Assembly (NCBI GenBank): GCA_051883495.1
Contig: JBJETV010000023.1
Location: 30,285-94,284, forward strand
Direction of reading: 5' to 3'
DNA from: Christensenellales bacterium
GTDB lineage: Bacteria; Bacillota; Clostridia; Christensenellales; UBA1242
DNA: 64,000 nucleotides
The notes beneath the pieces are model-generated. The model was given only the letters and a program-made list of their open reading frames with translations, was not told the DNA's origin and made no database searches. Below, one piece after another: positions 24,525 through 47,224 of this stretch. The translations under genes and the position numbers were made by a program. Position 1 is the stretch's first letter; each line of letters begins with the position of its first letter.

Positions 24525-25127
24525 ATGGATATTTTTTGGCAACTCACAAATAATAGTGGTATGAAATGGCTATTGATAACTGTAATGATTATTATTTTTT
24601 TGCTATTTATCCCCATAAGGATAAAGGTAAAAATACATTATGATTTTTTGCAAAGTCATGGCTTTGCCTCGGGCTATTTCTTCAACATAAGATTATTTTT
24701 GTTTGGGCTAAGGCTTATGCCCAACAAGATACAACTGGAGGGTAAAAAGAAAAATTACGTTTTTCCCATAATTGATTTTGGCAACAAAAAGACATTTGGC
24801 GAAGATTATTTTGGCTTTCTCATAAAATTATTGAGGCTGACACATATAAGGGCATTATCTCGTATAGGGATTGAGGACAACTGTATGCTCTCATGCCTAA
24901 CTTGTGGCATGCTAAATGTCGTTTTTGGTTCGGTGGCATGTGTTGCCCTTGGAGATAGCGAAACACCATTTGAGATAAACAATTTTCCCAACTTTTTATA
25001 TAAAAGTGCTTTGTATGGGATTTCGTCAAGTGTTGATATTACTATTTTCAAAATGCTACTAGCATTGATACAAACTTTTTCAAAAAAAATCAGGAGTGTA
25101 AAAAATGGAAACAAACAAACCTATTGA
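24525..25127 (+). CDS. YtfI-like (DUF2953) sporulation-associated membrane protein
   Basis: 200 aa with an N-terminal TM. Overlaps and precedes ytfJ as in the B. subtilis ytfI-ytfJ pair. Start may be ATG 24561. Confidence 0.5.
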   Translation: MDIFWQLTNNSGMKWLLITVMIIIFLLFIPIRIKVKIHYDFLQSHGFASGYFFNIRLFLFGLRLMPNKIQLEGKKKNYVFPIIDFGNKKTFGEDYFGFLIKLLRLTHIRALSRIGIEDNCMLSCLTCGMLNVVFGSVACVALGDSETPFEINNFPNFLYKSALYGISSSVDITIFKMLLALIQTFSKKIRSVKNGNKQTY

Positions 25128-25455
25128 AAATGTGCTTGAAAACACGCTAAAAAATATGAAATCTATGGTGGATATAGATTGCATAGTGGGCAAGCCTATC
25201 TCTCAAGACGGCTACTGCATAATACCCATATCAAAGGTTGCGGTGGGATTTATCTCTGGTGGGGGAGAATACAATACTCCAAAGAAAAAGGTTACTTATC
25301 CTTTTGCCGGCGGAAGTGGTGGCGGATGCAATATAGTGCCAATAGGTTTTTTGGTTATATCTAGCGCTAGTGTACAATTTATAAAAGTTGAAGCAGAAAG
25401 TAATGTTGACAAGATTGTAGATATCATAAAAGATGTCGTTTCAAAGGTAAAATAG
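25105..25455 (+). CDS. ytfJ: sporulation protein YtfJ (GerW family)
   Basis: 116 aa. Motifs GKPISQDGYCIIPISKVAVGFISGGGEY...FAGGSGGG...PIGFLVI are characteristic of YtfJ/GerW. Confidence 0.8.
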   Translation: METNKPIENVLENTLKNMKSMVDIDCIVGKPISQDGYCIIPISKVAVGFISGGGEYNTPKKKVTYPFAGGSGGGCNIVPIGFLVISSASVQFIKVEAESNVDKIVDIIKDVVSKVK

Positions 25456-25467
25456 TGGGAGCTTTGT

Positions 25468-26628
25468 ATGAAAATAAATATTAAAAAGATTTGCATAATA
25501 ACGTTAATATTATTCTCCGTTGCGATGTTTATTGCGACAAATTTTATCTCGCAAACGGCTGTTGTTTGTGCTAATCCAACCACTGTATCTTCCTCGGCAA
25601 AATCTATGATTGTAATAGAAACCTCTCAAGGCAAAGTGCTTTATGCAAAAAATGAAAACGAAAAATTACCAATGGCAAGCACAACAAAAATAGTTACAGC
25701 CCTTACAGTGATAGAAAATGTTGATGATATAGACAAACTGGTTACTGTGCCCAAAAAAGCAACCTTGGTGGAGGGTAGTTCAATTTATTTAAGAGAAAAT
25801 GAGCAATTAACCATAAAACAACTCTTATATGGTCTTATGTTACAGTCTGGCAATGATGCTGCCTTAACTTTGGCTCTGGAAGTGGGTAAAGGCAGTGTGG
25901 AAGCATTTGCAGATATGATGAATGAAACGGCACTAAAATACGGTTGCAAAGATAGCCATTTTGTAACTCCACATGGACTGGATGATAAGGAACACTTTAC
26001 TACTGCAAGTGATTTGGCAAAAATAACGGCAGTCGCACTAAAAAATTCTATTTTTAGAGAGATTGTTTCTTGTCAAAAGTTTATTATTCGTGCCACCGAG
26101 CACAATACTGCAAGGACACTGATTAACAAAAATAAATTGCTAAAGAGCCTTGATGGGTGCATTGGGGTAAAGACTGGCTATACCAAAAAATCTGGTAGGT
26201 GTTTGGTTTCTGCTTGCAACAGAGATGGAATGGAAGTGGTTTGCGTTGTTTTGAGTTGTGGTCCAATGTTTGAAGAAAGTATGGAACTTATAAATAAAGC
26301 ATATGAAGAATATAGACATTATGATATTATTTCCAAATACAAGGTGGTGGATAATATAACAGTGGATAATGGCGAAAACGCAACTACTAGGATATTCCAC
26401 AAAAATGGTTTTTCGGTAGTGTGCAAAAAGGGAGATGAAGGCAGATATACTGTGAAGTATGACTATCCAACAACCTGCAAAGCACCTATAGAAAAAGGTC
26501 AAAAAGTTGGAGAAGTTAAAATTTATTTTGATAATGACTTGATTTTTGTTGACGATTTGTGTAGTATTGAAGATGTGAAGGTGATAAAGCCAGAAACAAA
26601 AATTCAAGATATACTGGAAAAATGGTAA
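25468..26628 (+). CDS. D-alanyl-D-alanine carboxypeptidase (peptidase S11, DacB/DacF-like)
   Basis: Signal/TM N-terminus, active-site SxxK (ASTTK), SGN (QSGND) and KTG (VKTGYT) motifs, and a C-terminal PBP5-type domain. Confidence 0.88.
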   Translation: MKINIKKICIITLILFSVAMFIATNFISQTAVVCANPTTVSSSAKSMIVIETSQGKVLYAKNENEKLPMASTTKIVTALTVIENVDDIDKLVTVPKKATLVEGSSIYLRENEQLTIKQLLYGLMLQSGNDAALTLALEVGKGSVEAFADMMNETALKYGCKDSHFVTPHGLDDKEHFTTASDLAKITAVALKNSIFREIVSCQKFIIRATEHNTARTLINKNKLLKSLDGCIGVKTGYTKKSGRCLVSACNRDGMEVVCVVLSCGPMFEESMELINKAYEEYRHYDIISKYKVVDNITVDNGENATTRIFHKNGFSVVCKKGDEGRYTVKYDYPTTCKAPIEKGQKVGEVKIYFDNDLIFVDDLCSIEDVKVIKPETKIQDILEKW

Positions 26629-39263: not shown

Positions 39264-39727
39264 TTATATTTTAGTTCTTCTTTATAAATTGTCAAAAGAT
39301 TTAATATAAAAAAATTAAAAATTATTAAAATATTATGCTAAAAATTATGAAATATTAGGCAATAATACTGCAAATTTTATATTCTTTGCTGTAATATCTT
39401 GTTTGTGTATGTTGGAAATGTAAGACAAAATTTGCTGTATTTTGTTTTAATTGTAAAATCTTATAAAAGTTGTCAGACAATATTCTGGGTGAGTTATAAA
39501 ATGGTTTTTAGCATCTAGCATATTGTTAAGGTGTAAATGTGGTTGGGGTATTGAAAACTTATAATATTAACAATTTCCAATGATTTTATATTCAATATAA
39601 TGCTTCTATTTCAACATATTTAGTATAAACATTCATATTTTTCAAAAATTATATAGATTTGACTTGTTTTGGCAATATATGTTTGCTAAACTTGTATAGA
39701 CAATATGTTGTGGGGAAAAATGGTTGT

Positions 39728-40996
39728 ATGAGTGAAAGGGTATATTTTGTTATTGATATGAAGTCGTTTTTTGCATCTGTAGAGTGTGCAGAACGTGGGC
39801 TAGATGCAATGACTACCAATATGGTTGTGGCTGATGGTGAGCGTGGCTCTGGCACAATTTGCCTGGCGATAAGTCCAAGTATGAAGGCTCTAGGAATAAG
39901 AAATAGGTGTAGACTTTATGAAATTCCGCAAAGTGTTGATTACATTATTGCAACCCCAAGAATGAAAAAATATATTGATTATGCTGCAGAAATTTATGCT
40001 ATCTATCTAAAATACATTAGCAAAAATGATATTCATGTATATTCCATAGACGAATGTATTTTGGACGTTACTGATTATTTGAAATATTACAAGACCACAG
40101 CAAAGCCTTTTGCCCAAAAGTTGATGAAAGAAATATGGGACAAATTGGGTATTCCTTCTACTGTGGGTATTGGGAGCAATATGTATCTAGCAAAGATAGC
40201 GCTTGATATTACAGCAAAATCTGCCCCTGATAGAATTGGCTGGCTGAATGAGGAGAAATTTATCAAAACATTGTGGCATCACAGGCCACTTACAGATTTT
40301 TGGCAAATTTCTGATGGCACAGTTGCTAGGCTGAAAAAACACGGGATATTTGATATGGAAGGCATTGCAAAATGTGATGAGGAAGTGCTTTATCGTGAGT
40401 TTGGAGTTAATGCAGAATTGCTTATTGACCACGCATGGGGGAGAGAGAGTTGTTTGATGAGTGATATAAAAAATTATAAAACTCATTCAAAATCTATCTC
40501 CTCATCGCAAATTTTGCCATGCAATTATACTTTTGACGAGGCAAGAGTTGTTATGAAGGAGATGATTCAAAATGGCTGTTATGACCTTGCAAATCAGAAT
40601 TATGCCACGCAACTGATACATGTATATATAAGTTATGGAGATAGAAAAGGAGAACCTGACAAGGGCTCCCAAAGGTTGCCCGTAGTTACAAACCTTTATT
40701 CCATAATTGGCAAGGAAAGTGATGACTTGTTTTGCAAAGTTGCCGACCGCAAAAAACTTATCCGTCAAATAGGCTATTGCTTTGACAATCTTGTGCCAGA
40801 AAGCGATGAAAGATATGATTTTTTCACAAATTATGATAATGTAAAAAGGGAAAAAATCAAGACAAAGGCTGTGCTTGAGGTGAAAGATAAATATGGCAAA
40901 AACGCAATCCTTAAGGGGCTTGACTATGAGGGAAAAGCAACGCAAAGGGAAAGAAATCTGTCTATAGGAGGGCATAAAAGTGGAGAAAAGAATTAA
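39728..40996 (+). CDS. Y-family (UmuC/DinB, UvrX/YqjW-like) translesion DNA polymerase
   Basis: Start ATG 39728. VYFVIDMKSFFASVECAERGLD... and YSIDECILDVT contain the catalytic D and DE motifs of the ImpB/MucB/SamB family. Confidence 0.88.
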   Translation: MSERVYFVIDMKSFFASVECAERGLDAMTTNMVVADGERGSGTICLAISPSMKALGIRNRCRLYEIPQSVDYIIATPRMKKYIDYAAEIYAIYLKYISKNDIHVYSIDECILDVTDYLKYYKTTAKPFAQKLMKEIWDKLGIPSTVGIGSNMYLAKIALDITAKSAPDRIGWLNEEKFIKTLWHHRPLTDFWQISDGTVARLKKHGIFDMEGIAKCDEEVLYREFGVNAELLIDHAWGRESCLMSDIKNYKTHSKSISSSQILPCNYTFDEARVVMKEMIQNGCYDLANQNYATQLIHVYISYGDRKGEPDKGSQRLPVVTNLYSIIGKESDDLFCKVADRKKLIRQIGYCFDNLVPESDERYDFFTNYDNVKREKIKTKAVLEVKDKYGKNAILKGLDYEGKATQRERNLSIGGHKSGEKN

Positions 40997-40997
40997 G

Positions 40998-41138
40998 ATG
41001 CCTCGCTGGGAGAGGGCAAAGCAGTTTGCTCCATTTGATGCATTAAAAGGGCTAAGAGAAGCCTTGCGAGTGAAGGAAAGAGAGCATGATGAACTTCTAA
41101 AAAACAAAATTAAACATGAAAAAATTGATGAAACATAA
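40998..41138 (+). CDS. YolD-like small protein (46 aa), not in the ORF track
   Basis: ATG 40998 lies 1 nt after the polymerase stop. MPRWERAKQFAPFDALKGLREALRVKEREHDELLKNKIKHEKIDET* carries the W..(K)xFxPFxAL motif of YolD-like proteins, which follow uvrX/yqjW in Bacillus. Confidence 0.55.
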   Translation: MPRWERAKQFAPFDALKGLREALRVKEREHDELLKNKIKHEKIDET

Positions 41139-41221
41139 TATTTTTATCTAATTGAAATTTATTTTATACAAAATGCTTGTTAAATAAATCTTCTCTTCAT
41201 TGAATTTTTATGATTATATGT

Positions 41222-41460
41222 CAATATTTGATTTTTAATTTTGTTGATTTTACTTATGTTTTGTTGATTTTATTTATAAATATTGATAGATAAATTTTAT
41301 GTGTAAATATAAAGATATTGATAATCAATGTTGTATATAAGGATATTGATGGTTAATCTTGTGTATAAACATAAATAACTTGATTGTTGACTCTAATATA
41401 CGAAATAAAAACTTGATAGTTGAGTTTTATATACTTGATAGTTGAGATTTATATATAAAT
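41222..41460. repeat. degenerate tandem repeats (TTGAT-containing units) upstream of murI, ending in a near-perfect 22-nt duplication
   Basis: Units contain ATATTGATAG/ATATTGATAA/ATATTGATGG/CTTGATTG. The array ends with CTTGATAGTTGAGTTTTATATA 41412-41433 and CTTGATAGTTGAGATTTATATA 41434-41455. Confidence 0.8.
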
Positions 41461-41530
41461 TAAAGAGTTGACAATTGTTTTTGCATATAAATATAAACAA
41501 ATTGACGGTAATAATCATAAATAAAACTAT

Positions 41531-42286
41531 ATGGAGAGTATTTTTGTTTTTGACAGTGGTAGTGGTGGGGAATTTGTAACCAAAGAACTTTTGCGTGCCT
41601 TGCCACAAGAAAATTTTGTGCTGTATAAAGATGTAAAAAATTGTCCTTATAGCACCAAAAGCAAGATAAAACTTTGGCATATTGCTTGCAAGATTTTGAA
41701 AACCGCTACAAAGGTTTTAAGCCCCAAAGCAATAGTAGTTGCCTGCAACACTATGAGCAGTCTGTTTGAAAATAGAATAAGAAAAAAATTTGGCACTATT
41801 CCAATATTTTTTGTTACCCCAATGATAACCAATAAAATTTTGTCAAAAAAGACTCTTGTTCTTGCTACAACCCGTACTGTTAGTTGCAATAAGGAGGTAT
41901 TAAGCGCAAAAAGCAACAAAAATTGCATTGTTGTTGGCTTTGATAATTTGGCAAAAATGATAGACCTGGCAAAAGACTCGCCAAAGGTTGATGCAGATAT
42001 AAAATTGCTTTTACTAAATAGCCTAAGTAAATACAAGATATTTGGCATTAAAAATATAGTTTTGGGTTGCACGCATTACAGTTATATAAAAAAGCATTTG
42101 AAAGAGATTTTTGGCAATGTCAAGTTTTATGAAAAAAGCAAAATCATTGCCCAAGAATTAAAGGATTATTTGCAAAATTCAAACCCTGAAGAAAGCAAAA
42201 TTTTATCAAAGAAAAACCTAAAAACGATATTCAACAAGCAGGTTATTGTCGTGGAAAATATAAAAGAATTAAAGTTGTTTGCTTAG
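41531..42286 (+). CDS. murI: glutamate racemase
   Basis: FVFDSGSGG, VVACNTMS and VLGCTHYS motifs (two catalytic Cys) of the Asp/Glu racemase family. No Shine-Dalgarno sequence upstream. Confidence 0.85.
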   Translation: MESIFVFDSGSGGEFVTKELLRALPQENFVLYKDVKNCPYSTKSKIKLWHIACKILKTATKVLSPKAIVVACNTMSSLFENRIRKKFGTIPIFFVTPMITNKILSKKTLVLATTRTVSCNKEVLSAKSNKNCIVVGFDNLAKMIDLAKDSPKVDADIKLLLLNSLSKYKIFGIKNIVLGCTHYSYIKKHLKEIFGNVKFYEKSKIIAQELKDYLQNSNPEESKILSKKNLKTIFNKQVIVVENIKELKLFA

Positions 42287-42325
42287 AGATTTGAGCATAA
42301 AAAAAAGCCCCAAACGGAGCAGATA

Positions 42326-42402
42326 TGGTGGTCCCAATAGGACTCGAACCTATGACCTCTTCGATGTGAACGAAGCGCTCTAACCAACTGAGCCATGGGA
42401 CC
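42326..42402 (-). tRNA. tRNA-Val (anticodon CAC), CCA encoded
   Basis: Reverse complement folds as GGTCCCA-T-GGCTCAGTTGGTTAGAGC-G-CTTCG-TTCACAT-CGAAG-AGGTC-ATAGG-TTCGAGT-CCTAT-TGGGACC-A-CCA. Confidence 0.93.
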
Positions 42403-42848: not shown

Positions 42849-42871
42849 AAAAAATCCTCCAAAGCGGAGGA
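42849..42871 (-). terminator. intrinsic terminator of the Asn-rich lipoprotein gene
   Basis: Minus strand reads CCTCC-GCTTT-GGAGG followed by ATTTTTTT, immediately after the stop codon. Confidence 0.75.
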
Positions 42872-42877
42872 TATTTG

Positions 42878-45049
42878 TTATGCACGCACTTGCTTTGGCC
42901 CAAATGAAAGGGAATAGGCGGAGTGGTAAGAATTTGAACAAGTTTTTTCCAAATAATCTACAACAGGGAGTTTTAGTGGGGCTGTGTAGTAGTTTATCCC
43001 AGTGTTGTTTTGCACATTAGAGTTGTTCCTTGTATTTTGACTATTTGTTCCAACATTGCCATTTTGATATTGATTATTTTTATTTGTTTGGTTATATCTT
43101 TGAATGTTGTTATAGTTGTTTATTGCGTTGTAAGACTGACTATTTTGATTGTTTCTGTTGTAATTATTATTTTGCATATTATTTCTGTTATAGTTTCTGT
43201 CGGTTGTATTATAATTGCGTGATGTAGTATTTTGATTATAATTCTTGTTTATATTACTATAATTTTGAGAATTATTTTGGACAGTATTTCTATTTGAATT
43301 GTTTATTCCATTCATATTTTGAGTATTGTTGTAGTTGGTGGCAGAATGGGAATTGTTTATTCTATTGTTTTGATTATCATAATTAGTCTTTCTTATTGTA
43401 TTATTTGAAGAATTGTCCATTTGAGTTGTTTTGTTGTTTTGAATTTTATTATAACTTACACCGTAGTTTGAATTTTGATTTTTGTTTGTTGTAGAGTTGT
43501 TGATATTTGTATTAGAATTGTTTATTACATTTTGACTTGAAATCTTTTGATTGTTTGCAGGTATAGTTTGATTTGAATTGTTATTTGATGTATTATTCTC
43601 TGAAATTCTTGTTGCACTGTCGGCAGAATTTCTATCTTGAGTGGAATAATTTTGATTTGCAATTTTTTGATTATTATTAAAATTGCTATCTATTGTTCTG
43701 TCATCAGCCAACGACTTGTATGTGCGTTGTGGCACAATAGTTGGAGTGGAAGTATTGTTATATTTATTTTCTAAATATTCTTGAGGATTCTTTATATCCT
43801 TTGTGTAGGCATTGTTGTAGTTGTTTTTTTGAGTGTTTTGTGAGTTATTAGAAAAACTGGTTGAGTTGTTTTGATACCCATTTGAATTGTTTTGATATCT
43901 ATTTGTGTTTTCTTGATATCTATTCGAGTTGTTTTGATATCTGCTTGAGTCATAAACTCTGTTGTTTGTTCTGTTGGTTGAGTTATAATTGTTTGATTGG
44001 TTGTTTTGATTTATATAACTGTTCCTATTGTTTTGTGAGTTATAAGTTCTATTTCTGGAAGTTTGATATCTATTGCTTTCAAACTGATTTTTTGCATAAT
44101 TATATCTGTTTTTGGCTGTTTGATTGGAGCCTAACATTGCTTCATTGGTTGTTTTTTCGCCAAGAAGTTTGCTGGCAAAATTGATAAGGTCAATAACAGA
44201 ATTGTTTGCATTGTTGCAAGTATTGCAATTGGAGTCTATGCAGTTGTAGATATTTCTATAGTCTGCTGTCATAGAGCCAGAATTGCTGGCGAGATTCAGT
44301 TTTTTCTTGCCGATAGAGTTCACTGTAGATTTGCAACCTTTGCAGGAAGTAATGTTATTGGTGCATTGCTTGATAACTTCATAATAACTATTTAGCGTCT
44401 TTACATCACTATCCGAAAGTTTTGCTTCACCATTTTTTAATCTTTCCAAGAGTTCTTTGGCACGATTGCAGTTGTTAATAAGTGATGTCTTTGTGCTAGA
44501 ATATTCTTTGTTTAGGTCACAAACATTGTTGCAAGCAGTTCTGAGGTCATTGTAACCACTGTCGCTGGTTGCAAGGTTAAGGTTTCTTTTGGTTGCTCTA
44601 TAATCACTTGATGCAAAAAGATTGGCATTGGCTCGTTGAGTCATATGATTTTTTGTTGGCATTTTTACATTCAGCACTTCTCTGTATGGATAAATATTTC
44701 TTCTAGTGTTGCTTCTTTGACTAGATGTATCAGCATTCTGCGTGTTTGAAGTGTTGTAGTTTTGAGAGTAATTCTTGCACTTATAGCAACTGCCATTTTC
44801 ACAATAATAGCAATCATCTCCATAGCAGTGATAACCGTCAGATGTGTCCATATTTTCTCCCAAAATAGAGTTTAGATCTATTTTGTCGGTGTTTACATCT
44901 TCCAGTTTTTTCACCTGGGATATCATTTTATCCAACCCCCCAGATATTTTTTTGCTGGCAAGTTTAACCTGCGCCTGATTGCCATTTGAACATGCAAAAA
45001 GGAAAGTGCAAGCCAGCAAAATTGACAATAATCCAATAAATTTTTTCAT
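42878..45049 (-). CDS. lipoprotein with Cys-rich N-terminal half and roughly 400-aa Asn/Gln/Ser/Tyr-rich low-complexity C-terminal half
   Basis: Signal peptide plus lipobox MKKFIGLLSILLACTFLFAC-S. Cys clusters (HCYGDDCYYCENGSCYKC, CNNVC, CKGCK, CIDSCNTC). From about residue 325 onward, nearly continuous N/Q/S/T/Y/R sequence with heptad-like NRYQNNS repeats. Confidence 0.8.
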   Translation of the reverse strand: MKKFIGLLSILLACTFLFACSNGNQAQVKLASKKISGGLDKMISQVKKLEDVNTDKIDLNSILGENMDTSDGYHCYGDDCYYCENGSCYKCKNYSQNYNTSNTQNADTSSQRSNTRRNIYPYREVLNVKMPTKNHMTQRANANLFASSDYRATKRNLNLATSDSGYNDLRTACNNVCDLNKEYSSTKTSLINNCNRAKELLERLKNGEAKLSDSDVKTLNSYYEVIKQCTNNITSCKGCKSTVNSIGKKKLNLASNSGSMTADYRNIYNCIDSNCNTCNNANNSVIDLINFASKLLGEKTTNEAMLGSNQTAKNRYNYAKNQFESNRYQTSRNRTYNSQNNRNSYINQNNQSNNYNSTNRTNNRVYDSSRYQNNSNRYQENTNRYQNNSNGYQNNSTSFSNNSQNTQKNNYNNAYTKDIKNPQEYLENKYNNTSTPTIVPQRTYKSLADDRTIDSNFNNNQKIANQNYSTQDRNSADSATRISENNTSNNNSNQTIPANNQKISSQNVINNSNTNINNSTTNKNQNSNYGVSYNKIQNNKTTQMDNSSNNTIRKTNYDNQNNRINNSHSATNYNNTQNMNGINNSNRNTVQNNSQNYSNINKNYNQNTTSRNYNTTDRNYNRNNMQNNNYNRNNQNSQSYNAINNYNNIQRYNQTNKNNQYQNGNVGTNSQNTRNNSNVQNNTGINYYTAPLKLPVVDYLEKTCSNSYHSAYSLSFGPKQVRA

Positions 45050-45192
45050 TTTTACCTCCGGAACATCAATTGTTCAAAGTTATTTTGGCAGAAATTTGTA
45101 AAATTATTTATTTTTTGAATAAAATTTTTTGCACTGACAATATTTATTGAGAATTTTGTTGCTGGTTATATGGCAAAATTGCTGGAGGAATA

Positions 45193-45651
45193 ATGGATAA
45201 ACTAAAAACAAACCAAGAGTATTGTAAATTTGTAGAGAATCGTCTTCCAAAAACTAGGTTTTTCCCATCTCTATTATGGGCTTTTTTGGTGGGGGGATTG
45301 ATATGTTGCATTGGACAGGGGATTTTTGACGGACTTATGGCATTGTTCCCAACACTTTCAAAAGATGATGTGCAGGCTTACACTTTGGTCATACTTATCT
45401 TTCTTGCGGCATTTCTTACTGGGTTAGGCATTTATGATAGAATAGGGGTGTTTGCTGGGGCTGGCTCTATTGTTCCTATAACAGGGTTTTCCAATTCTAT
45501 TGTAAGCCCAGCAATGGATTTCAAAAATGAAGGCTGGATATTTGGCGTTTGTGTAAAAATGTTCTCCGTAGCAGGGCCTGTTATTGTCACTGGCATAGCA
45601 TCTAGCATGCTCGTTGGGGCGATTTATTATATAATTGGACTTTTTGGATAA
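45193..45651 (+). CDS. spoVAC: stage V sporulation protein AC
   Basis: 152-aa four-TM protein. LPKTRFFPSLLWAFLVGGLICCIGQG and SIVPITGFSNS are typical of SpoVAC. Confidence 0.9.
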   Translation: MDKLKTNQEYCKFVENRLPKTRFFPSLLWAFLVGGLICCIGQGIFDGLMALFPTLSKDDVQAYTLVILIFLAAFLTGLGIYDRIGVFAGAGSIVPITGFSNSIVSPAMDFKNEGWIFGVCVKMFSVAGPVIVTGIASSMLVGAIYYIIGLFG

Positions 45652-45754
45652 GTCGTTTTGTTTTGCGATAGAGCCAATGAGGGTATTCAAAAGTTAGCAA
45701 AACTATTTGTAGGGCAAAAGAGCAACCATATTTTACAATAAAAAGGGAGAGATT

Positions 45755-46765
45755 ATGTTAAACAGAGTTGGTGAAAGAACTATCAAATTTACAACACCAC
45801 CAAAGCTTATTAGTGGGTATGCAATTGTTGGGCCAAAGGAAGGGCTAAGCCCAGTGTCCAAATATTTTGACTATATCCTAAAAAATGACTTGTTTAATGA
45901 AAAAACATACGAAATAGCCGAAAGAAAAATGTTGGAACAAGCAATTTGTGGTGCAACGGACAAGGCAAATATATTGTCAACAGATATAGATGTGCTGTTA
46001 AGTGGAGATTTGCTAAATCAAATTATCTCTGCGTCTTATTCTGCAAGGCAAATACAAACGGCTTTTGTAGGGGTATTTGGTGCATGCTCTACTATGACCG
46101 AAAGTATTGCCCTTGGCGCATGTCTTGTTGATGGAGGGTATTGTGGCAGGGTTGCATGTGCTACTTGCAGTCATTTTTCCACTGCGGAAAGACAGTTTAG
46201 GTCACCACTGGAACTGGGTTGTCAAAGACCACCAACTTCACAATGGACAGTAACTGGTGCTGGGTGTTCCATTTTGGCAAAAGAAGGCAATGGGCACAAC
46301 ATTGTTTATGCAACTTTTGGCAAGGTTGTGGACTTTGGGATAAATGATATGAACAATATGGGTGCAGCAATGGCACCTGCGGCGGCGGATACGCTTAGGG
46401 CACTGTTTAGGGATACAAACACAACTCCGGCAGATTATGACTTGATTGCAACAGGCGACCTTGGAAAGTTGGGGAGTGAAATTTTGGTGGACCTTATGGA
46501 AAATTATGGTTATAAAATGGGAGAAAATTATTGTGATTGTGGACAACTGATATACAGCAACAAGCAACGAAGTTATATGGGTGGAAGTGGTTGCGGTTGC
46601 AGTGCCAGTGTTATCAACTCCTACATTTTGAGCAAATTGGACAATGGAGATTATAAAAAGGTTATACTTATGTCCACAGGGGCTCTTATGAGCACTACTT
46701 CCAGCCAGCAAGGAGAAACAATCCCTGGCATAGCGCATGCTGTGGTTGTGGAAAAGGGAAGATAA
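45755..46765 (+). CDS. spoVAD: stage V sporulation protein AD
   Basis: 336 aa, thiolase-like. GYAIVGPKEGLSP...GDLLNQ...GACST motifs. Follows spoVAC. Confidence 0.9.
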   Translation: MLNRVGERTIKFTTPPKLISGYAIVGPKEGLSPVSKYFDYILKNDLFNEKTYEIAERKMLEQAICGATDKANILSTDIDVLLSGDLLNQIISASYSARQIQTAFVGVFGACSTMTESIALGACLVDGGYCGRVACATCSHFSTAERQFRSPLELGCQRPPTSQWTVTGAGCSILAKEGNGHNIVYATFGKVVDFGINDMNNMGAAMAPAAADTLRALFRDTNTTPADYDLIATGDLGKLGSEILVDLMENYGYKMGENYCDCGQLIYSNKQRSYMGGSGCGCSASVINSYILSKLDNGDYKKVILMSTGALMSTTSSQQGETIPGIAHAVVVEKGR

Positions 46766-46771
46766 AGGGGT

Positions 46772-46853
46772 ATAAAGATAACTATTTGAAAGGGTAGATA
46801 AAGATAGAACTATTTGATGGATTAGATAAGGATGTAACCATTTGAAAGGGGTG
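46772..46853. repeat. three tandem 26-28-nt units filling the spoVAD-spoVAEb spacer
   Basis: ATAAAGATAACTATTTGAAAGGGTAG / ATAAAGATAGAACTATTTGATGGATTAG / ATAAGGATGTAACCATTTGAAAGGGGTG. The last unit supplies the spoVAEb RBS. Confidence 0.85.
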
Positions 46854-46858
46854 AATGT

Positions 46859-47224
46859 ATGTTTTTGAAATATCTTATTGTGTTTGGAGTTGGTGGGCTT
46901 GTTTGCTTGATTGCACAGATACTTATAATAAGAACTCGTATGACATCAGCAAGGATATTGGTGTTGTTTGAACTTATAGGTGTATTGTTGCAAGCGGTGG
47001 GAATATTTGAACCCATAAAAAGTTTTGCTAATGCAGGTATAACAGTGCCAATCATTGGGTTTGGAGCAAGTCTTGCAAGGGGTGCTATGGAAGGAGTGAA
47101 GAAGGCAGGGATACTTGGGATATTCAATGGCGGGGTTACTGCAACTTCTGCTGGCATAGCCGCTGCGGTTGGATTTGGATATCTATTTGCGCTTATATTC
47201 AAAGCCCATAGCAAGAAGTCTTAG
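46859..47224 (+). CDS. spoVAEb: stage V sporulation protein AE (AEb)
   Basis: 121-aa membrane protein paralogous to SpoVAC (VPIIGFGASLARG). Third gene of the spoVA cluster. Confidence 0.85.
   Translation: MFLKYLIVFGVGGLVCLIAQILIIRTRMTSARILVLFELIGVLLQAVGIFEPIKSFANAGITVPIIGFGASLARGAMEGVKKAGILGIFNGGVTATSAGIAAAVGFGYLFALIFKAHSKKS

Follow-up and report, generated by a model that had tools for sequence, protein, structure and literature searches.

A spoVAC-linked family of predicted lipoproteins with a helical head and a long asparagine-rich disordered tail in uncultured Clostridia

The stretch of 64,000 nucleotides from contig JBJETV010000023.1 of a Christensenellales bacterium (the window, whose own numbering is used throughout) carries on its minus strand, at positions 42878-45049, a gene for a protein of 723 residues that begins with a predicted lipoprotein signal, continues with a helical head and ends in a very long Asn-rich tail. 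The gene lies back to back with the spoVAC-AD-AEb operon of the dipicolinic acid (DPA) channel. It is genuine, conserved and under purifying selection, and no artefact, and its product belongs to a previously undescribed family, small and lineage-restricted, whose members come from Clostridia that are uncultured and for the most part of gut origin. Forespore lipoproteins linked to germination or to the DPA machinery are already known as a kind, and a lipoprotein subunit encoded at a spoVA locus was recently demonstrated: SpoVANJ2 (NJ2), a YhcN/YlaJ-family lipoprotein of the spoVA2 locus of Bacillus anthracis/cereus (Yu et al., mBio 2026, PMC13059800). Since the bond with spoVAC has been kept through deep divergence and through rearrangements of the other flank, the protein is tentatively proposed to act as an extracytoplasmic accessory of the SpoVA channel or of the germination apparatus, resembling the NJ2 cap but unrelated to it, a proposal that falls a little short of being probable.

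The coding sequence (723 codons plus stop, ATG start, minus strand) was taken from the list of open reading frames (ORFs) and is intact in the orthologs. A Shine-Dalgarno sequence GGAGG, read from the sequence and kept in all loci, is placed 5 nt 5' of the ATG (45055-45059, minus strand). Six nucleotides past the stop codon the terminator scan located an intrinsic terminator-like hairpin and T-run (42854-42872, minus strand; 8-bp stem with 4 GC pairs, then TTTTTTT), so that the gene can be regarded as a monocistronic unit. An ortholog scan covering one genome per species returned five orthologous loci (L001-L005), all of them in metagenome-assembled genomes labelled as uncultured Clostridia or 'Christensenella sp.'. 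The frame, whose interruption in related genomes had been named by the original prediction as grounds for doubt, is whole in the five of them (555-721 residues), and the pairwise ratio of nonsynonymous to synonymous substitution rates (dN/dS) is low, as expected under purifying selection: 0.04-0.07 in the head (residues 21-300), 0.12-0.29 in the alignable parts of the tail of close pairs and 0.00-0.33 in the last 38 residues, also of close pairs. The long T-rich ORFs that had been pointed out opposite the tail are present (43010-43222, 43030-43227 and 43861-44184) and are judged spurious because it is the sense frame that is under purifying selection.

These values also bear on the reading of the low-complexity half as non-functional slippage debris on a decaying gene. 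Tandem-repeat expansion within the tail and the wide differences in length between close relatives (555-723 residues) speak for such an origin. The frame, on the contrary, is intact in every ortholog, the dN/dS of the tail is far from 1, and the tail is found in nearly all family members, with invariant residues at its far end; its absence from homologs, contemplated earlier, was not what the family displayed. The intact frames, the dN/dS values and the invariant C-terminal residues effectively refute this reading.

A spacer of 143 bp parts the gene from spoVAC (45193-45651, plus strand), which is followed by spoVAD (45755-46765) and spoVAE/Eb (46859-47224) and then by yunB and pheS. This DPA-channel operon, the proposed partner (45193-47224), was identified through Pfam PF03862/PF07451 and NCBIfam TIGR02838/02845/02839, and the divergent layout across 45050-45192 that had been read from the sequence was thus confirmed. 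The same order is found in the five orthologous loci, where yunB, spoVAE, spoVAD and spoVAC form one unit with spoVAC nearest to the lipoprotein gene, which reads away from it. Divergent pairing with spoVAC extends to members that are just 24-35% identical, about nine clades in all, and was seen in every contig with enough flanking sequence (the window, L001-L005, L006-L009, L011, L012, L013/14 and probably L015). The family was seen only at this sporulation locus.

In most of the clades at 24-35% identity the gene, read from the other strand, lies between the spoIIAA-spoIIAB-sigF operon and the spoVAC-AD-AE genes. The most divergent pair of members, P0047 (L015/L016) and P0048 (L017), keep this position between sigF and spoVAC together with the lipobox and the N-rich tail. 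The ancestral position is evidently an insertion into the canonical Clostridial cluster, between the sigF operon and spoVAC-AD-AE; in Clostridioides difficile this cluster comprises sigF (CD0772) and spoVAC (CD0773). Where the locus has been rearranged, sigF was lost and spoVAC was kept: in the clade of the window, a tRNA-Val gene and a murI-like gene are found downstream, and in L011 a short-chain dehydrogenase gene. Therefore the spoVAC side seems to be the constrained link, although the shared promoter region alone could explain this.

In one locus (L007, 7422-7879, minus strand) spoVAC is not called in the annotation, yet the DNA translates to an intact SpoVAC homolog, which indicates an omission in gene calling rather than a loss. 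Within the operon of the window spoVAC, spoVAD and spoVAE are about 100 bp apart (gaps at 45652-45754 and 46766-46858), whereas they abut or overlap in L006, L008, L011 and L013.

The arrangement of the locus is shared ground with a rather unlikely alternative, in which the protein would be a forespore-made lipoprotein of the inner membrane or the intermembrane space whose role is unrelated to SpoVA, and the adjacency would follow from a compact bidirectional forespore promoter region used by both genes. Candidate roles would be stabilisation of the membrane or of germinant receptors in the manner of YhcN, YlaJ or GerD, organisation of the cortex or germ cell wall, or signalling at the engulfment stage, downstream of sigma F. 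What speaks for forespore expression and for a lipid anchor fits this alternative equally, the ancestral site makes the linkage to sigF as old as that to spoVAC, and the NJ2 paralogs of Bacillus subtilis are forespore lipoproteins without a role in DPA transport (PMC13059800). The retention of spoVAC and loss of sigF upon rearrangement, in the window clade and in L011, is the point that tells against it, with the proviso on the shared promoter region given above.

The promoter of the lipoprotein gene was predicted on the minus strand at 45081-45110 and is of the sigma F/G type, with a -35 box TAAATA (45105-45110), a 17-nt spacer and a -10 box CAAAATA (45081-45087) that ends 31 nt before the ATG. 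The assignment relies on the register across clades and on a position weight matrix (PWM). The pattern [TG][AT]AATA-17-CAAA[AC]TA recurs in exact register, with the -10 box ending 28-32 nt from the ATG, at 12 loci of 6 clades, and the sequence around it in the spacer drifts while the -35/-10 pair stays. The three most divergent clades show TAAATA-17-CAAACTA, TAAATA-17-AATACTA and the canonical TGTATA-18-CACACTA, respectively.

When consensus patterns for sigma G, F, E and K were compared with the spacer, only a sigma G-type -10 was matched; neither the sigma E nor the sigma K -10 pattern occurs in the 143 bp. The strict GHATR pattern for the -35 box gave no match, and therefore a two-block PWM was used, built from 44 C. 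difficile sigma F/G promoters with mapped transcription starts (Saujet et al. 2013, Table S6, PMC3789822). With a score of 10.1 bits the lipoprotein promoter lies in the top 0.07% of window positions (the training promoters range from 0.8 to 15.2). The predicted forespore-type promoter of spoVAC-AD-AE (45116-45145, plus strand) scores 11.8 bits (top 0.02%) and consists of a -35 box TGAATA (45116-45121), a 16-nt spacer and the -10 block CAATATTT (45138-45145); it lies at a suitable distance from spoVAC and is conserved in the clade of the window and in L012, and the two -35 boxes stand back-to-back, 5 nt apart. The spoVAC operon of C. difficile is under sigma F/G control (PMC7438776; PMC3789822 Table S6). 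The YtfJ-like gene, taken as a second positive control for the PWM, failed, as its match (25125) falls inside the ORF starting at 25105. Since the specificity of the PWM is modest in AT-rich DNA, the promoter argument rests on conservation in register and not on the score alone.

Thus a search of 45050-45192 for forespore or mother-cell promoter motifs, which had been suggested from the sequence, yields a sigma F/G-type element kept in register, and the lipoprotein gene is probably expressed in the forespore. The spore-associated role originally put forward (cortex, coat or germination) gains strength from this element and from the spoVAC linkage in about nine clades, except for the coat, which becomes unlikely because the promoter type points to the forespore and not to the mother cell. 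An ordinary vegetative cell-surface lipoprotein, for instance an adhesin or an envelope spacer, which had come to lie beside spoVAC by historical accident, is very improbable. Helical-bundle surface lipoproteins are common, those of Borrelia being the top (non-significant) fold matches of the head, and any AT-rich spacer yields sigma-70-like hexamers. Sigma-70-like sites, however, are no commoner in the region than in shuffled sequences and none lies on the strand of the gene in the spacer, the conserved upstream element is of the forespore type and in register over about nine clades, and the family was seen at this sporulation locus only.

The signal peptide and lipobox occupy residues 1-20 (MKKFIGLLSILLACTFLFAC; 44990-45049, minus strand), with a layout of MKK, FIGLLSILLACTFLF and A-C20. 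This N-terminus, followed by Ser, satisfies at Cys20 a PROSITE PS51257-type pattern, so the predicted lipidated residue is Cys20, even though the Phe at -2 is atypical. No aligned family member departs from Cys20 (24/24 and 37/37), and the lipoboxes of other clades are classical (LVGC, ATGC and FGC). A search of PDB sequences with the family profile found a sole match, to the signal-peptide end of a Mn-ABC lipoprotein. The lipoprotein signal claimed by the original prediction is therefore supported both by the sequence rule and by the family-wide lipobox, and the protein is predicted to be a lipoprotein lipidated at Cys20.

A closer look at the head, by AlphaFold2 with the family alignment and in a second, full-length run, revealed a four-helix bundle made of residues 23-48, 164-205, 213-234 and 240-295, with a predicted local distance difference test score (pLDDT) of 81-96; the bundle was reproduced in the full-length run. 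Its first helix (residues 23-48) belongs to a conserved N-terminal helix block (residues 23-65; 44855-44983, minus strand) that is conserved family-wide, and residues 31-50 reach a pLDDT of 93-95 in the two independent runs. The other three helices form the conserved core (residues 164-295; 44165-44560, minus strand; pLDDT 81-96). Between them, a variable disordered insert (residues 94-162; 44564-44770, minus strand) has a pLDDT of 25-45 and is gap-rich and length-variable in the alignment, apart from a small conserved 'PT.N' island. Since the bundle starts only 3 residues past the lipidated Cys, in this model it would have to lie flat on the membrane surface.

The cysteines of the core conserved in the family are C173, C177, C194, C229, C236, C239, C275 and C278. 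Among these, C194 is invariant and C229 and C239 are at least 90% conserved across the family, and C173 and C177 co-occur (phi 0.91). Taken as a proxy for disulfide partners, co-occurrence suggests the pairs 173-177 and 229-239, an indication that is suggestive only. A Cys knuckle with two CxxC pairs (GYHCYGDDCYYCENGSCYKC, residues 72-91; 44777-44836, minus strand), predicted as three short strands (pLDDT about 55-72), is found only in the window's own clade in the family alignment, to which the first Cys cluster (residues 74-91) and the HCYGDDCYYCENGSCYKC string are likewise confined. All the Cys strings quoted for the N-terminal region by the original prediction are present. They do not make up one domain with Cys clusters, as had been thought, since the four-helix bundle (residues 23-48 and 164-295) is split by the disordered insert (residues 94-162) and the most striking cluster is clade-specific. 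When the confident model of the head was compared with the PDB by Foldseek no fold relative was found at E<0.5, the best matches being generic helical bundles (E 0.6). A likeness to the surface lipoproteins of Borrelia, the top Foldseek matches, was rejected as non-significant.

The family to which the protein belongs matches nothing in the curated collections. Pfam and NCBIfam gave no family match for the window protein, a comparison of 24 heads and 37 full-length members with Pfam (E<=1) brought up nothing beyond scattered coiled-coil noise below threshold, and the profile search of PDB sequences returned matches at the level of the signal peptide only. A word-indexed search of 5.8 billion proteins yielded two close relatives only, and an exhaustive phmmer search of 1.84 billion cluster representatives yielded 30 representatives with identities as low as about 28%, of which 21 had E<=1e-10. 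A separate profile search gave 25 proteins; no source names any of them and none has a Pfam tag, and the literature search found no paper describing this lipoprotein family. The members share a common architecture: a lipobox Cys near position 20, the helix block (window residues 24-65), the variable insert, a Cys block of about 135 residues (165-300) and a long tail rich in N, S, T and Q. Full-length proteins span 505-836 residues. Their tails contain 15-35% N (median 25%) and differ widely in net charge, from -26 to +20, and in some clades they are D/E/T-rich with just 15% N.

In the window protein Asn makes up 23.7% of the 723 residues, against a median of 5.9% in the 37 other window ORFs of at least 200 residues. 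The intrinsically disordered Asn-rich tail comprises residues 302-685 (42995-44146, minus strand), has a pLDDT below 50 and holds at least 30 Q/N per 80 residues throughout; its length and sequence vary and its composition is kept. Residues 321-690 are 33.5% N and 9.7% Q. The Q/N-rich criterion of Michelitsch and Weissman reportedly requires at least 30 Q/N within a window of 80 residues. This level is attained continuously from residue 297 to 713, with a maximum of 44, and the tail thus qualifies as Q/N-rich. There are no homopolymer runs (the longest N run is 3 and the longest Q run 1), and the tail contains 9.5% K+R and 4.1% D+E, 13.5% charged residues overall. The bias is weaker around residues 415-470, where a conserved YTKDIK is found. 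The N/Q/S/T/Y/R tract described from the sequence is therefore borne out as an Asn-rich tail, but it is dominated by Asn and not balanced between N and Q, and it is interrupted at about residues 415-470. In the full-length AlphaFold model residues 302-723 have a pLDDT below 50, with a low-confidence helix at 310-330 and no secondary structure beyond it. Docking of the C-terminus onto the head in cis was not seen in this model (pLDDT about 30 at the end).

Length variation of the tail is real. A tandem repeat of 21 bp (43861-43950, minus strand; Tandem Repeats Finder: period 21, 4.3 copies, 79% matches) encodes the NRYQ(N/E)N(S/T) heptads of residues 367-397 or so, in agreement with the NRYQNNS heptad-like repeats recognised earlier, and one ortholog (L001) has one heptad more. 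Length differs even between close relatives (589, 619 and 671 residues at a head dS, the synonymous divergence, of 0.16-0.5), so the repeat-length polymorphism that was to be checked between strains is real.

Within this hypervariable tract several short motifs remain fixed. The linear motif YTKDIK (residues 415-420; 43790-43807, minus strand) is conserved. TKDI[KW], usually in the context NP-x-TKDIK, occurs in 25/38 full-length family proteins, against 0.009 expected from tail composition, and a TP[SA]P[KR] motif recurs in the tails of distant clades. The semi-conserved C-terminal region (residues 686-723; 42881-42994, minus strand) ends in GPKQVRA (42881-42901), and the extreme C-terminus follows the pattern [FLM]GP-x-x-VRA. 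When 39 and 37 family proteins were aligned, V721 and R722 proved invariant and the conservation of A723 reached at least 90%, and VR[AVY] is present within the last 25 residues in 36/38 full-length proteins. Some clades extend 3-16 residues beyond VRA, often as ...TLEEI or ...TLELI. A role of the terminal VRA as a PDZ-type C-terminal ligand for SpoIVB or CtpB was considered and not adopted, given that 3-16 residues follow VRA in several clades. Because residues so far along a hypervariable tract are invariant, the whole tail must be translated in frame and its C-terminal end must do something specific. Such a pattern marks a flexible spacer that displays short linear motifs, neither slippage debris nor a domain acting through its bulk composition.

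The composition of the tail led the original prediction to call it prion-like, and a possible consequence would be its assembly with itself outside the membrane, as a functional amyloid, hydrogel or condensate, into a protective or gating matrix at the interface of inner membrane and cortex, somewhat akin to the gel-forming GerG of C. difficile. The Q/N-rich criterion is exceeded by a wide margin (44/80), and although the sequence turns over, the family keeps the N-rich composition. The polar N/S/T/Q background of the tail is dotted with Tyr (8%) and Arg (6%). Interspersion of Tyr and Arg in a polar background is a composition associated with phase-separating low-complexity domains. Even so, this outcome is judged quite improbable. 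The range of net tail charge (-26 to +20), atypical for canonical prion domains, and the D/E/T-rich tails with 15% N of some clades are hard to square with a conserved assembly chemistry; conservation sits in short motifs and is not composition-wide; AlphaFold displays no beta-rich or ordered state; and low-complexity sequence from AT-rich genomes is N-rich by default, the tail DNA having 24-31% GC. About 0.15% of bacterial proteins, some four per proteome, contain N/Q-rich disordered regions (Harrison 2019, PMC6400439), which also argues against a special assembly. Tracts of this length, presented as unusual in bacteria, are accordingly uncommon, but less exceptional than was implied. The label 'prion-like' fits the composition of the tail and little else: the protein is predicted to be exported, 13.5% of the tail residues are charged, the AlphaFold model is one of plain disorder and it is short motifs that are conserved. 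A flexible, motif-bearing tether describes the tail better than a self-templating domain.

The strongly Q/N-rich and predicted disordered character is shared with Clostridium botulinum Rho (PMC4703818) and with the proteins surveyed by Harrison (PMC6400439). Unlike the cytoplasmic Rho-type case, the window protein is predicted to be exported and lipid-anchored, is dominated by Asn, has 13.5% charged residues and is conserved in short motifs.

The following scenario would accommodate these features. The gene would be transcribed in the forespore, as the conserved motifs suggest, from its sigma F/G-type promoter back-to-back with that of spoVAC-AD-AE. The product would be exported and anchored through Cys20 on the outer face of the inner forespore membrane, a location that follows the lipobox and the compartment of expression; this would be the same membrane and the same face at which the SpoVAC/Eb channel for dipicolinic acid opens, facing the germ cell wall and the cortex. 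The four-helix head, for which the structure prediction is confident, would be held flat on the membrane surface and would work there with SpoVA or with another component of germination. From it the disordered Asn-rich tail of about 420 residues would project toward the germ cell wall and cortex, probably as a flexible tether that shows TKDIK and the terminal GPxxVRA to partners in trans. As a rough estimate, a disordered chain of 420 residues extends over some tens of nanometres.

The closest parallel is NJ2: it co-purifies with C2/D2/Eb2, DPA import requires it, and it is predicted to cap the channel on its outer face (PMC13059800). Reported in 2026 and only in the B. cereus group, it is the first extracytoplasmic lipoprotein subunit of SpoVA, and Clostridial spoVA operons were described as 'capless' (PMC13059800); the spoVA operons of C. 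difficile and B. subtilis and the spoVA1 operon of B. anthracis lack an NJ2-type gene (PMC13059800). Like NJ2, the window protein is encoded at the spoVAC-AD-AEb locus and is predicted to be made in the forespore and to reside on the extracytoplasmic side of the inner spore membrane. A mode of action similar to that of NJ2 would be the most economical reading of the spoVAC linkage. The two proteins differ in several respects. PF09580 is matched neither by the window protein (E<=0.01) nor by the 24 heads or the 37 full-length members (E<=1), and NCBIfam gives no YhcN/YlaJ match for the window protein either. Homology to NJ2 and membership of the YhcN/YlaJ family were rejected because PF09580 is unmatched in all 37 members. 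The gene of NJ2 lies inside its operon and is co-oriented with it, whereas the window gene is a separate divergent unit; NJ2 has neither a four-helix-bundle head nor a disordered tail of about 420 residues, and the interaction of the window protein with SpoVA is putative.

Other lipoproteins of the spore offer partial analogies. The window protein is predicted to be of the same kind as YhcN, YlaJ, YutC and CoxA of B. subtilis, which are forespore-expressed lipoproteins of the inner membrane, but it differs from them in fold and in family, as it lacks PF09580. YhcN has an Asn/Asp-rich low-complexity stretch. In the YhcN type a short low-complexity tether separates the anchor from the domain, while in the window protein the domain is next to the anchor and a long low-complexity region is distal to it and ends in a conserved motif. 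GerD, the scaffold of the Bacillus germinosome, is an all-helical lipoprotein that depends on sigma G and sits on the outer side of the inner spore membrane, the place and the kind of structure predicted for the window protein. GerD has only about 180 residues, no disordered tail and no known link to spoVA, in contrast to the long-tailed, spoVA-linked window protein, and a match to GerD was found neither in the Pfam scans nor in the profile search or the Foldseek search of the PDB. Two germination factors of C. difficile, the gel-forming, repeat-rich GerG (PMC5241399) and the lipoprotein GerS (PMC4619724), recall the window family by low-complexity repeats and by lipid anchoring, respectively, and illustrate that lineage-restricted, clade-specific proteins can matter. 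They have no sequence relation to the window family and are not known to be encoded at the spoVA locus. Both GerG and GerS are expressed from mother-cell promoters.

Several observations weigh against an accessory role at the channel. SpoVA of C. difficile functions without any cap (PMC13059800), and the head bears no detectable similarity to NJ2, YhcN or YlaJ. Divergent neighbours need not be functional partners, and synteny covers the entire pheT-pheS-yunB-spoVAE-AD-AC block in all these genomes, so that some of the conserved adjacency may have been inherited and not selected. As to the promoter, around 90 window positions score as high on the PWM, some of them upstream of housekeeping genes, and the -35 box is devoid of the consensus G in most clades. 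The tail motifs are not universal either: P0047 and P0048 have neither the terminal VRA nor TKDIK, and the motifs therefore define a subfamily and not the whole family.

A more specific version of the accessory proposal is doubtful. The family would be an independently evolved, non-homologous subunit of the SpoVA outer face in a lineage of gut Clostridia. Its bundle would rest on SpoVAC/Eb in the manner of the NJ2 cap, and its tail would reach into the germ cell wall and cortex and, by way of the invariant terminal motif, make the opening of the channel depend on cortex state or on a cortex-lytic enzyme, as a 'tripwire' linking cortex hydrolysis and DPA release. How SpoVA is gated from outside and how DPA release is coupled to cortex hydrolysis are open questions of spore biology. 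If the accessory role is true, Clostridia would have a second lipoprotein family, unrelated to the first and tied to spoVAC, which would suggest that outer-face accessories are a recurrent solution and would provide a new handle on channel regulation. Were the SpoVA link wrong, this would still be an undescribed family specific to a sporulation locus and worth a Pfam entry, with limited wider interest. The tail offers a clean natural example of a bacterial disordered region outside the cytoplasm that drifts freely in length and yet keeps its linear motifs, terminal and internal, fixed. It is also a warning that, in AT-rich bacteria, a protein of 'prion-like' composition does not have to behave as a prion.

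The remaining observations concern the flanks and the rest of the window. Beyond the terminator of the lipoprotein gene there is a tRNA-Val gene (anticodon CAC; 42326-42402, minus strand) with its own terminator-like hairpin (42307-42320, minus strand), placed in a 590-bp AT-rich gap (21-26% GC) before the murI-like gene. This tRNA gene marks the rearranged flank, because the sigF operon occupies that position in distant relatives. In the window 0.6 kb separate the lipoprotein gene from the murI-like gene; this interval is about 1.7-2 kb in L003 (11771-13468), L005 (3112-5100) and L004 (3946-5923), so these genomes contain additional sequence at this place. The glutamate-racemase-like (murI-like) gene itself (41531-42286, plus strand) falls below the curated cut-offs (TIGR00067, 119 vs 146.65 bits; Pfam Asp_Glu_race, 26.2 vs 31) and is 51-76% identical between orthologous loci, compared with 86-89% for the neighbouring DinB-like gene; its product looks like a racemase that evolves fast or is divergent. 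The DinB/ImpB-like polymerase gene (39659-40996) is parted from this racemase-like gene by an intergenic stretch of about 480 bp with 18-21% GC (41050-41530). Rfam, run on the locus and on the whole window, returned tRNAs only, and no riboswitch or small RNA that would explain the AT-rich flanks, this stretch included. Farther away, an apparent sporulation cluster was recognised by eye on the plus strand (24525-26628), with a membrane ORF of 200 residues, a YtfJ/GerW-looking ORF of 116 residues (GGGEY...GGSGGG...PIGFLVI) and a D-Ala-D-Ala carboxypeptidase-like ORF of 386 residues.

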